Of a DNA stretch of 4,079 bases, positions 1 to 4,079 are shown piece by piece. The first letter of the stretch is position 1. Every line of letters starts with the position of its first letter. This DNA is from a virus (taxonomy: Duplodnaviria > Heunggongvirae > Uroviricota > Caudoviricetes): IMG/VR virus record IMGVR_UViG_2671180680_000011; one strand, written 5' to 3'. A program made the translations under genes and the position numbers. Under the pieces are notes generated by a model, which saw only the letters and a program-made list of their open reading frames with translations, was not told the origin of the DNA and made no database searches.

Positions 1-47
1 AATATCTCCCCGGCAGCCTTCAGGGAAAAATATCATCAGATGGCTGC

Positions 48-401
48 TTAAAAAAAGAACAAATGGTAGTGTCCGCTATTGCCAGTACACCTCAATTGCT
101 CTGCGGCTTCGCTCAGAGCTGGCGTATGTTCCCGGCCTACTGATTCACACAGGTAATCAACGAAACCGGACACCAGTTTTCGTTCGCGAGGCGTGATCGC
201 CCCACCGACCGGAGTCCAGTAATCGAAACCCAGTTGCAGGAGTTTGAAAAAACGCTTGTGGAATGCGTAGTTACACACACGCTTAAAGTCTGCGTGTATC
301 CACTCACCTATTTTGATTTGATGCAGAAAATCGCAACTCTCCGGCGTCGCCGGGAGAAGTAATCCGGAAGAGGTTTGTTTGACCAGTTGTATATGTGCCA
401 T
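48..401 (-). CDS. Hypothetical protein, 117 aa from the ATG at 401 (alternative 131-aa form from a TTG at 443); second gene of a two-gene operon
   Basis: Long ORF on the minus strand. The internal ATG at 401 is preceded by GGAGA about 6-7 nt upstream; the ORF-track start at 443 is a TTG overlapping the upstream stop. No family recognised (sequence contains FDYWTPVGG and a Cys/His-rich C-terminus). Confidence 0.5.
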   Translation of the reverse strand: MAHIQLVKQTSSGLLLPATPESCDFLHQIKIGEWIHADFKRVCNYAFHKRFFKLLQLGFDYWTPVGGAITPRERKLVSGFVDYLCESVGREHTPALSEAAEQLRCTGNSGHYHLFFF

Positions 402-439
402 CGGCTTTCTCCGGTGGCACGGTGTTACACAGCAGGAGT

Positions 440-727
440 TCAATCCTGCTCAAGATTGTAGATGAGTTTATTCTTCAGCAAAAGCAGAAAACCAGCCTTA
501 AAACCAATCTCTTTCAAAACCCGTAATGATGTGACAAATTCGTCCTCACGCAAAATAAAACCGTCCGTCAGAAGTCCATTACAAAAATAAAATAACACAG
601 CACCGCTCTTCCTTTGTTGAGATTGCAAACATCTAATGCGGCAATGGCTGACAATCGCTCCATTCTCAACGCGCACAGCATAGAGGCCATTTTCACTAAA
701 AATTTCACGCAATTCTTCGATTTTCAT
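440..727 (-). CDS. Hypothetical protein, 95 aa; first gene of a two-gene operon
   Basis: ATG at 727 preceded by AAGGA about 8 nt upstream; stop TGA at 440-442; candidate promoter upstream at 809-836. No family recognised. Confidence 0.5.
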   Translation of the reverse strand: MKIEELREIFSENGLYAVRVENGAIVSHCRIRCLQSQQRKSGAVLFYFCNGLLTDGFILREDEFVTSLRVLKEIGFKAGFLLLLKNKLIYNLEQD

Positions 728-808
728 CTTCAGAATCCTTCCAGATAAATAGCTCTCCCCTGTTCGGGGTCCATCCCTCTTCTCCCTGCGCGCTACTTAA
801 GTGAGTCG

Positions 809-836
809 ATTCTATCTGCGAAGGTGCGCGAATCAA
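809..836 (-). promoter_or_regulatory. Putative sigma70 promoter for the 95-aa/117-aa operon (TTGATT, 16-nt spacer, TAGAAT)
   Basis: Read on the minus strand: -35 TTGATT (plus 831-836) and -10 TAGAAT (plus 809-814), placing the start about 75 nt upstream of the ATG at 727 and just downstream of the hok terminator. Confidence 0.3.
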
Positions 837-846
837 ATTCACCGGA

Positions 847-901
847 AATAAACAACAAAAAACCCGCCGAAACGCTGAGAGATCACAGCGATGGGCGGGT
901 T
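847..901 (-). terminator. Rho-independent terminator for the hok/mok transcript
   Basis: Minus-strand RNA forms an 8-bp outer stem (861-868 with 894-901) around an inner 5-bp stem (873-877 with 886-890), followed by a U-rich tract (complement of plus 847-860, AATAAACAACAAAA). Confidence 0.55.
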
Positions 902-940
902 AAGTGCGGGTGCGTTGAGGATGCCTGACACATCAGAGGT

Positions 941-968
941 GGGCGGGGATGGGATCAGCTCCCCGCCC
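941..968 (-). promoter_or_regulatory. GC-rich stem-loop just 3' of the hok stop; candidate hok mRNA 3' structural element (fbi/tac-like)
   Basis: Perfect 9-bp inverted repeat GGGCGGGGA (941-949) and TCCCCGCCC (960-968) with a 10-nt loop, 9 nt downstream of the hok stop codon; no U-tract follows, so not itself a terminator. Confidence 0.35.
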
Positions 969-976
969 GGTCACTC

Positions 977-1132
977 TTACTTCCTGGATTCGTAGTCTAC
1001 GAAGACAGCGACCTCCGTCTGGCCGGTTCGGATTCGTACCTCACAGAGGTCTTTCCTCGTTACCAGTGCCGTCACTATGACGGTTAAACAGATGACGATC
1101 AGGGCGATTAACATCGCCTTTTGCTGCTTCAT
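977..1132 (-). CDS. hok: Hok/Gef-family type I toxin, 51 aa, small membrane peptide
   Basis: Translation MKQQKAMLIALIVICLTVIVTALVTRKDLCEVRIRTGQTEVAVFVDYESRK closely matches chromosomal Hok/Gef/RelF toxins as recalled (single TM helix, conserved R-K-x-L-C-E motif); AAGGAG Shine-Dalgarno about 7 nt upstream of the ATG at 1132. Confidence 0.85.
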   Translation of the reverse strand: MKQQKAMLIALIVICLTVIVTALVTRKDLCEVRIRTGQTEVAVFVDYESRK

Positions 1133-1189
1133 AGCCTGCTTCTCCTTGCCTTTCGGCATGTAAGAGGCTAACCTACATGTGCAAAGCAT
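977..1189 (-). CDS. mok: mok-like reading frame (in-frame N-terminally extended ORF covering hok)
   Basis: ATG at 1189 with GAGG about 8 nt upstream; the extension MLCTCRLASYMPKGKEKQA resembles the extension of chromosomal mok frames as recalled. Confidence 0.5.
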   Translation of the reverse strand: MLCTCRLASYMPKGKEKQAMKQQKAMLIALIVICLTVIVTALVTRKDLCEVRIRTGQTEVAVFVDYESRK

Positions 1190-1245
1190 GAAATTGGCCT
1201 CAGATTAATGTTAAGCGTCTTGCCGGACGCGTAATGTTAACTGGG
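1175..1245 (+). ncRNA. sok: Putative sok-like antisense RNA covering the mok start; coordinates approximate
   Basis: Position inferred from hok/sok architecture. Weak plus-strand promoter candidate TTGCCT (1146-1151), 17-nt spacer, TAACCT (1169-1174); hairpin 1215-1230 downstream. No clean terminator seen. Confidence 0.2.
1206..1240. repeat. 9-bp direct repeat TAATGTTAA (1206-1214 and 1232-1240) flanking a hairpin (GCGTC 1215-1219 with GACGC 1226-1230) in the hok leader/sok region
   Basis: Exact repeat and inverted repeat read directly from the sequence; function unknown. Confidence 0.3.
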
Positions 1246-1308
1246 GCTTTTCTCTATCTGCCTTTTGGTGTTCATGCCTGAAGCAGATAGCCTCAAGCAC
1301 CCGCAGTC

Positions 1309-1338
1309 ATTCTACTTACCTCGCCAATATGAAATCAA
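1309..1338 (-). promoter_or_regulatory. Putative sigma70 promoter for hok/mok mRNA (TTGATT, 18-nt spacer, TAGAAT)
   Basis: Read on the minus strand: -35 at plus 1333-1338, -10 at plus 1309-1314; predicts a leader of about 110 nt before mok and a transcript of about 450 nt ending at the 847-901 terminator. Lies immediately 3' of the QueH-like stop. Confidence 0.35.
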
Positions 1339-1359
1339 TCAGAAAGGTGCCCCATAAAA

Positions 1360-2046
1360 TCACTCCTTCTCTTCTTTACCGTAGTGGAGTTGACCAATTT
1401 TGATAAGAGGGCGTCCCTGAGATTTGCGGTGTAGATTGGTATCGCGCAGAGAATACACACAGCCACAATATTCCTGCTGATAGAATTTTTCGCGCTTGCT
1501 GATTTCAATCATACGGGACGAGCCGCCCTGCTTGCGCCAGTTATAATCCCAGTACACCATGCCCGGATAATGCGCGACGGCTCGCCGCCCACAGTCGTTA
1601 ACCTGCTGCATATTTTTCCAGCGTGAAATGCCCAGTGAACTGCTGATCACACTGAAACCATTTTCAGCGGCGTACAGCGCTGTCCGCTCAAAACGCATGT
1701 CAAAACACATGGTGCAACGGATCCCTCGTTCGGGCTCCCATTCCATTCCTTTGGCTCGTTCAAACCAGTTGTCTGTGTCGTAATCAGCATCAATAAACGG
1801 CACGCCGTGTTGTTCAGCAAAGCGAATATTCTCATCCTTACGAATTAAATACTCTTTCTGAGGATGAATGTTCGGGTTGTAGAAAAAGATGGTGTAGTCG
1901 ATTCCCGAGGCCTGAAGCGCCTCCATCACCTCACCGGAACATGGAGCACAGCAAGAGTGCAGTAGTAGTTTGTTTGCCCCGTTTGGGAGCTCCAATTTGG
2001 GCCGTTTGAAATCAGCAACTGTCATAAATATGTTTATTGGGGTCAT
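1360..2046 (-). CDS. queH: DUF208/QueH-family protein (epoxyqueuosine reductase-like, Fe-S), 228 aa
   Basis: Contains the family-typical motifs [38 protein letters not shown] and YCGCVYS. Start is uncertain: ATG at 2046 or 2025, neither with a strong Shine-Dalgarno. Stop TGA at 1360-1362. Confidence 0.8.
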
Positions 2047-2107
2047 AAAAATATCAAAGAGTGTAGCATTAGAACGGGGCTATCGGAAACAGATGTGTGA
2101 CTGCTCC

Positions 2108-2123
2108 CCGCCCTTTCGGGTGG
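2108..2123. other. GC-rich hairpin in the intergenic region upstream of the QueH-like gene
   Basis: CCGCCC-TTTC-GGGTGG (6-bp stem with one G-U pair); on the minus strand the loop reads GAAA. No U-tract on either strand, so not a canonical terminator. Confidence 0.2.
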
Positions 2124-2193
2124 TCTCCTGATGATTTGAGGGTGCAGAAATCCCTCCGGTTAAGGATTAAATTTTTAACAGTGCTAAATTTAA

Positions 2194-2550
2194 TTATTCA
2201 GTTCTGGATTTTGTCGCCCTGCGTATCCGCGCTTTCGCGTTACGCTCAATCTGTATCAGCTTTTCTATATTTCTCCGCCTTTCCTGTTCCTCCTGGCGCA
2301 ATAGCCTTACATCATCTGCCAGTCTGGTTTCTCTTTTTGCCACAGAGAGCATCCAGTCAAACGGCTCCACAACCGCACCGCAGATTTTACAGCGGACCTG
2401 ACGCTCTTTTTCGTCAACCCGTACAGAGGCGTGATGGCAATATGGTCTTTCCGATGGCTCATAAAGAAAATTAACCTGATTACGAGGGTCATCCTCTTTT
2501 ACCGGAAATAAAACGATATTGCTTAACTCATCTTCTGGTTTTATTTCCAT
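2194..2550 (-). CDS. Hypothetical small protein, 118 aa, with a putative Cys/His zinc-ribbon-like motif and a charged C-terminal coiled-coil-like tail
   Basis: ATG at 2550 preceded by a strong AAGGAGAGGAG Shine-Dalgarno (AGGAG 6 nt upstream). An in-frame alternative ATG at 2607 directly abuts the upstream stop (TGAATG). Motif C-H-H, 12 residues, C-x2-C; tail rich in R/E/K. No family recognised. Confidence 0.6.
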   Translation of the reverse strand: MEIKPEDELSNIVLFPVKEDDPRNQVNFLYEPSERPYCHHASVRVDEKERQVRCKICGAVVEPFDWMLSVAKRETRLADDVRLLRQEEQERRRNIEKLIQIERNAKARIRRATKSRTE

Positions 2551-2607
2551 GCTCCTCTCCTTTGATGCGAATGCCAGCGGTAATTGAAGCCTGATAGCTA
2601 ATTTCAT

Positions 2608-2830
2608 TCACAGTATCGCCTCCTGAAAATTACCCTGATAGAAAGCCAGTACACGCTGCATAGCTTCGCTCTTCCGGCACTCGCGACAGATTATATTCAG
2701 GCGCCTGTCGTAGCGGCGTATTTCTCCGTCAGGTAATGACCAGATAAGGTCCGGATCAACAACAACCGGTTTCCTCACCTTTACTCTCGAGAGTTTTTTG
2801 CGGGCGCTTTGCCAGTCCTTGCGAGCCTGT
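2608..2830 (-). pseudogene. 3' fragment of a gene truncated by the IS911-like insertion (73 host-encoded codons)
   Basis: The reading frame is open right up to the IS boundary at 2830/2831 with no internal start; the ORF-track start is a GTG at 2856 inside the left inverted repeat. Stop TGA at 2608-2610 overlaps the next gene's alternative ATG. Confidence 0.45.
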
Positions 2831-2866
2831 TGAAGTGGCACACTGAATTTGGCCACCTGAACAGAG
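2831..2866. repeat. Left terminal inverted repeat (IRL) of the IS911-like element
   Basis: TGAAGTGGCACACTGAATTTGGCCACCTGAACAGAG; first 8 nt and the GGCCACC core match the reverse complement of the right end. Confidence 0.8.
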
Positions 2867-2902
2867 GTGATATGCTCACCTCAGAACAACACAGGTGCTC
2901 CA

Positions 2903-4079
<1,177 letters not shown>

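Follow-up and report, generated by a model that had tools for sequence, protein, structure and literature searches.

Expansion of the insertion sequences IS1, IS2, IS4, IS600 and IS911 has taken place in every Shigella species, and the greatest recent IS activity, together with substantial strain-to-strain variation, has been reported in Shigella sonnei (Hawkey et al., 2020; PMC7373316). IS911 is a member of the IS3 family, the elements of which are flanked by direct repeats of 2-4 bp (PMC3299598). In the gene family considered here, an IS3-family insertion is found in E. coli CFSAN029787 (NZ_CP011416.1, 4706784-4708512; positions 1285-3013 of locus L013), wherein a homologous DUF977 gene, occupying the same prophage slot and lying upstream of the same gene for a 118-aa zinc-ribbon protein, is divided by IS2 into N-terminal and C-terminal fragments that are both annotated as pseudogenes by PGAP. 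Intact DUF977 loci are present in FDAARGOS_943 and in S. sonnei 866, and in the Rac prophage of E. coli K-12 the same slot, directly after ydaV in the racR/ydaS-ydaT-ydaU-ydaV operon, is taken by ydaW. An equation of the DUF977 gene with K-12 ydaW was considered and rejected, as no convincing homology was found and the sole match covers 37 residues in the HTH region (E 0.037).

Here, we analysed a stretch of DNA of 4,079 nucleotides, referred to as the window throughout, which is composed of three parts:

1-94: end of an IS600
95-2830: prophage DNA, with all genes on the minus strand
2831-4079: a complete IS911

We propose that the window is very probably a segment of a defective Rac-like lambdoid prophage from an S. 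sonnei-type chromosome, flanked by IS600 at its left end and by IS911 at its right, and that the IS911 entered the DUF977 gene by simple insertion. The locus shares with the known Shigella IS911 insertions (PMC7373316) the same element (99.8% identity), the same host background and the same strain-specific inactivation of a gene, whereas none of the genome and contig collections searched contained an insertion at its site, which follows codon 67 of the DUF977 gene. It resembles the split gene of CFSAN029787 in the family of the element, in the neighbouring zinc-ribbon gene and in the division into N-terminal and C-terminal fragments, but the element there is IS2, it is inserted in the opposite orientation and at another position (homology to the window ends at 2736), and both halves of the gene are visible. 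The intact loci of FDAARGOS_943 and S. sonnei 866 carry DNA that is 99.8-100% identical to window 95-2830 in the same gene order, but have no IS at this place.

Results

Full-length IS911 and its left junction

The right-hand part of the window, 2831-4079, is 99.8% identical over its full length to copies annotated by PGAP as 'IS3-like element IS911 family transposase', these copies serving as the reference. The following features were located in and next to it:

2831-4079, plus strand: complete IS911 (IS3 family), 1249 bp, in opposite orientation to the prophage genes
about 2831-2866: left inverted repeat (IRL), TGAAGTGGCACACTGAATTTGGCCACC
about 4044-4079: right inverted repeat (IRR), reverse complement TGAAGTGGTCAACAAAAACTGGCCACC
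2903-3205, plus strand: orfA, Pfam HTH_Tnp_1
stop at 4069-4071, plus strand: orfB, in the -1 frame, Pfam rve/rve_3
2828-2830: TGT, presumed left copy of a target duplication of 3 bp, the typical length for IS911; the other copy would lie past the window end

The matching IS911 copies reside in many unrelated chromosomal and plasmid contexts, the start of the match is constant at window 2831, and the final base of the window is the last base of IS911. The termini, TGAAGTGG...CCACTTCA, are imperfect inverted repeats with TG...CA ends, and IRL and IRR are identical in their first 8 bases and conserve a GGCCACC block. An A-AAA-AAG slippery site (A6G) is present at 3154-3160, and a simulated -1 frameshift results in a stop-free OrfAB of 389 aa. 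The T at 3663, which is a G in the copy of locus L008, changes a Trp of OrfB to Cys (VGWAMS to VGCAMS) shortly past the region of the first catalytic Asp, and the transposase of this IS911 copy may be impaired by the substitution. The same T at 3663 also occurs in a truncated resident IS911 copy of locus L005.

The boundary between host and element at 2830/2831 is set by the conserved TG...CA termini, the T at 2831 being common to both by chance, and the plus-strand sequence of the empty site is ...GAGCCTGT/TCAGACGG.... The first-pass annotation had placed an IS911-like element directly against the host reading frame at this position, which is confirmed both by the 99.8% match to IS911 and by the alignment to IS-free alleles, which breaks there. 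As the junction coincides precisely with the TG at the IS end, it bears the signature of transposition and not that of a random chimera.

IS911 is attracted to target sequences that resemble its own inverted repeats. The target site at 2823-2835 (sense strand CCGTCTGAACAGGC) and positions 27-34 of the IRL (2857-2864) have the 8-mer CTGAACAG in common, in inverted orientation; this match could be due to chance, or it could be tied to the preference of the element for IR-like targets.

Position of the split gene in the prophage operon

Five NCBI chromosomes of 4.8-4.9 Mb (L003, L005 and L010-L012), retrieved through a look-up of the zinc-ribbon protein, match window 1-2831 with 100% identity, which extends across the IS600/DUF1367 junction at 94/95. 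One of the five, CP022672, is that of S. sonnei strain 866 (PMC6128377). The DUF977 gene is intact, encoding 140 aa, in all five of them. Intact alleles in E. coli genomes were also found with the host flank 2050-2830, the best being that of FDAARGOS_943 (99.7%), wherein a 423-bp gene encodes a 'DUF977 family protein' (WP_001118169.1) and the alignment with the window departs exactly at the IS end. These alignments indicate that the window is an S. sonnei-type locus with one extra IS911. Of the interrupted gene the window retains:

2608-2830, minus strand: 3' part of a DUF977-family gene, comprising the last base of codon 67, codons 68-140 and the stop, without the N-terminal winged helix

This part is 100% identical to the intact genes of the five chromosomes and 99.8% identical to that of locus L001. 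It matches Pfam DUF977 (PF06163) at positions 81-134 of 134 with 51.1 bits (cut-off 22.1; E 1.9e-13), and the intact allele matches positions 1-134 with 116.6 bits. The intact protein has an HTH_24 winged helix at residues 11-54 (E 8.9e-7); residues 1-67, including this domain and the native start, are missing from the window, and in the intact alleles the native start lies 200 nt further upstream. A natural gene start near 2830, which homologues might have revealed, was thus not found, as the intact protein measures 140 aa and the window holds residues 68-140 only. The domain assignments therefore indicate that the insertion splits the putative DNA-binding domain from the C-terminal half of the protein.

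The DUF977 gene is also a mosaic, in that the alleles of CFT073 and FDAARGOS_943 agree at about 95% of positions over the 3' half and differ strongly over the 5' half (alignment of 2560-2900 with L001 and L002), with the transition located no more than a few tens of bases from where IS911 inserted.

In the IS-free alleles, a cI-like gene stands opposite a cro-like gene, which is followed by ydaT, a replication gene, ydaV, the DUF977 gene, the zinc-ribbon gene, the QueH gene, hok, the Rem gene and the DUF1367 gene, and K-12 Rac is syntenic with it over the stretch that begins at the repressor gene and ends with ydaV. In every IS-free allele, 14 bp separate the stop of ydaV, which encodes a DnaC/IstB-like ATPase, from the start of the DUF977 gene. 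The interrupted gene had been taken for the first gene of its operon, but the co-directional ydaV, replication gene, ydaT and cro-like gene upstream of it constitute the early-right operon of a Rac-like prophage. Nor is it supported that the insertion removed a native 5' end and promoter, as had been supposed: an insertion separates the 5' part of a gene from the remainder, and the operon promoter lies several kb upstream, already cut off by IS600 in the parental S. sonnei lineage. The S. sonnei chromosomes carry one IS600 within the replication gene, about 1.5 kb upstream of here, and a further one that truncates the DUF1367 gene downstream; the prophage is thus regarded as a decayed, IS-riddled remnant, the early operon of which was already disconnected from its promoter. 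The IS911 is antisense to the operon, and an upstream transcript would have to cross 1.25 kb of IS.

Leftward of the DUF977 fragment, the window carries these features:

2194-2550, minus strand: hypothetical zinc-ribbon protein, 118 aa, annotated by PGAP in L001, with a weak Zn_Ribbon_TF match
1360-2025, minus strand: prophage-borne QueH (epoxyqueuosine reductase family), 221 aa, Pfam QueH E 1.9e-65, annotated by PGAP in L001
977-1132, minus strand: hokD-type type I toxin gene, Pfam HOK_GEF E 9.8e-23, annotated as hokD by PGAP in L001
440-727, minus strand: prophage gene of 95 aa, Pfam Rem (PF27490, a precomputed Pfam family), a hypothetical protein in L001
48-401, minus strand: DUF1367 gene cut after about codon 102 by IS600, Pfam DUF1367 positions 1-102 of 198
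1-94, plus strand: last 94 bp of IS600, with the orfB stop at 49-51 and a right terminal repeat that ends ...CACCTCA at 94; 100% identical to IS600-family copies

A strong RBS of its own, AGGAGAGGAGC, precedes the ATG of the zinc-ribbon gene, the translation of which is therefore independent of the DUF977 reading frame; the identical 118-aa protein is encoded in many Shigella and E. coli genomes. A QueH homologue, flanked by the zinc-ribbon gene and hokD, is thus part of the early genes of a lambdoid prophage, and its role in a phage is not obvious. In locus L008 (CP180015.1, 6406-7670) an IS600 lies between the zinc-ribbon gene and queH, at the equivalent of window 2145-2149, a further case of strain-to-strain IS variation. 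At the left end of the window, homology to L001 ends at 95, and the truncated DUF1367 gene takes its last 15 or so codons and its stop from IS600, which makes it a second IS-host chimeric ORF; the same truncated gene, of 117 aa, is called in L010. Since the IS600/DUF1367 junction is common to S. sonnei 866 and the related chromosomes, it is older than the IS911 insertion.

An IS-host open reading frame at the junction

Reading leftward across the junction, one open frame joins the end of IS911 to the remaining DUF977 codons:

2608-2856, minus strand: chimeric ORF of 82 codons, with a GTG start at 2854-2856 within the IRL and the stop at 2608, encoding MAKFSVPLQ followed by residues 68-140

It is made up of 8 2/3 IS-derived codons and then DUF977 residues 68-140, and is bounded upstream by an in-frame stop at 2881-2883. 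The GTG at 2856, which the first-pass annotation had named as the only available start, does exist within the IRL; it is not the only one, since in-frame starts are also present at GTG 2841 in the IS and at GTG 2778 and ATG 2661 in the host part, and none of the four is the native start. By our estimate, such an ORF is statistically unremarkable, as about 17 codons are open from the junction to the upstream stop and a start codon would be expected in such a stretch about half the time.

Signals for the expression of the ORF were looked for in the same region. In the 20 nt before GTG 2856 (AGCATATCACCTCTGTTCAG) there is no Shine-Dalgarno sequence, and a simple consensus scan detected no minus-strand sigma-70-like promoter in 2000-4079, a result with which weak expression is still compatible; the sole minus-strand promoter-like sites in the scan are located upstream of hok and of the Rem gene. 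Crude consensus scans for an outward promoter or a terminator in IS911 gave nothing above shuffled expectation. Because neither a Shine-Dalgarno sequence nor a predicted promoter accompanies it, the chimeric ORF is most likely incidental, that is, an accidental by-product of the insertion that would not be expressed.

Search for the junction in other genomes

The IS911/DUF977 junction has no megablast match in 5426 complete E. coli genomes. In exact-pattern scans, the left junction and the predicted right junction (with a gap of 0-6 bp) were absent from the GTDB representative genomes, and the junction was likewise absent from metagenome contigs. At the protein level, exact look-up of the 82-aa chimeric product and of 9 alternative N-termini found none of them in the protein collections, and the predicted N-terminal fusion products, assuming duplications of 0-5 bp and the N-termini of either FDAARGOS or S. 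sonnei, gave no match there that would support the junction.

DUF977 fragments of 67 or 68 aa from the N-terminal side, on contigs that end at the insertion site, were examined as candidates for the other half of the gene and were rejected: their ends are native (...TCTGAA to ...TCTGAACAGGC) and carry no IS911 end, and they fall within a graded series of truncations at contig ends, 58-122 aa in length, in draft Shigella assemblies. Two DUF977 paralogues, CIELVAS...QARKDWQS and CMELVAS...QAHKDWQN, with common 3' halves, are present in Shigella genomes, and the contig breaks within the gene are likely caused by these paralogues. A 62-aa DUF977 fragment, P0007, has a non-native tail at its end and is grouped with the independent IS insertions in this gene family.

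Discussion

Based on these comparisons, we propose that a full-length IS911 would have arrived by the ordinary copy-out/paste-in transposition of the IS3 family, after codon 67 of the 140 codons of the DUF977 gene, and that the insertion would part the N-terminal winged-helix domain from the C-terminal half, leaving two pseudogene fragments. The 5' fragment of the gene and the second TGT would then be found directly past position 4079, and a simple insertion predicts a right junction of the form ...GTTGACCACTTCA + TGT + TCAGACGGGAATAAGCC..., followed by the remaining DUF977 gene and ydaV. The functional consequence would probably be small, the operon presumably being repressed in the lysogen and already severed from its promoter by the IS600 in the replication gene.

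A true left junction could also be combined with a right side that was later rearranged, through recombination with another IS911 or through an intramolecular inversion or deletion, such that the element no longer borders the 5' half of the DUF977 gene, ydaV and the remaining operon, and the 5' end would in effect be gone from this locus. In related S. sonnei chromosomes, the same remnant does contain a further IS911, located about 5.3 kb upstream and in opposite relative orientation, and this resident copy is flanked by CAA on the left and GGT on the right and so has no target duplication (L008, 2092-3340; IRR ends in L003, L007, L010 and L011), which suggests that IS911 copies in this region undergo secondary rearrangements. 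IS copies without duplications are linked to large rearrangements (PMC11708052), and IS-associated strain differences exist in this region (L005, L008). However, nothing in the window needs a rearrangement, simple insertion is the default outcome, and in CFSAN029787 both halves of the IS2-split DUF977 gene still flank the IS; a rearranged right side is accordingly considered unlikely. An assembly artefact, in which a unique prophage segment was joined to an IS911 repeat that had been collapsed or built as a consensus, the actual genome lacking IS911 here, would fit the draft-contig appearance of the window, which starts 94 bp inside one IS and stops on the last base of another, as well as the absence of the junction from all collections searched and the breaks that draft Shigella assemblies do show in the DUF977 gene. 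Yet the join coincides with the first base of the IS terminus, which a random chimera would hit in only about 1 in 1250 cases, and the draft contigs that break here (L015-L021) run into native sequence (...TCTGAACAGGC) and not into an IS end, suggesting that assemblers stop at this place and do not invent IS junctions, and we therefore hold an artefact to be extremely unlikely.

It is very unlikely, though slightly less so than an artefact, that the locus holds something beyond an ordinary disruption, be it a DUF977 fragment without the winged helix that is expressed from GTG 2856 or 2841, or an antisense read-out from IS911 into the zinc-ribbon, QueH and hok genes, the latter giving the strain a new regulatory state for its prophage-borne QueH, or, as a second possibility, a choice of the site by attraction to IR-like sequence. 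In the version of the first-pass annotation, the first gene of an operon would probably have lost its 5' end and promoter, and the zinc-ribbon and QueH genes might rely on read-through from the IS or be silenced; a functional chimera starting at GTG 2856 could conceivably be added to it. The chimeric ORF does exist, and no minus-strand promoter-like site is found from the IS to queH, so that the zinc-ribbon and QueH genes depend on upstream transcription. On the other hand, the DUF977 gene is the fifth or a later gene of the early-right operon in all IS-free alleles, 14 bp past ydaV; the zinc-ribbon gene is supplied with its own strong RBS and GTG 2856 has no Shine-Dalgarno sequence; and no outward IS911 promoter is predicted on the minus strand. 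The -10 element in the IRL, moreover, reportedly faces inward. Hardly any credence is left for that version of events, the least probable of those considered here.

Simple insertion of IS911 into the DUF977 gene thus remains the preferred reading, and the event, a strain-specific IS insertion of an ordinary kind within a defective prophage, belongs to a phenomenon already known, in view of the IS expansion in Shigella (Hawkey et al., 2020) and of the independent IS insertions in the same gene family and locus. For annotation, it illustrates that ORFs formed at IS termini can mislead gene callers, and the appropriate annotation for 2608-2856 is that of a DUF977 pseudogene, 3' fragment, and not that of a new protein. 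Beyond this the locus is of little importance, being one more strain-specific IS911 in an IS-riddled prophage remnant of the S. sonnei type, and the IS911 insertion at the DUF977 gene could serve as a lineage marker for typing.
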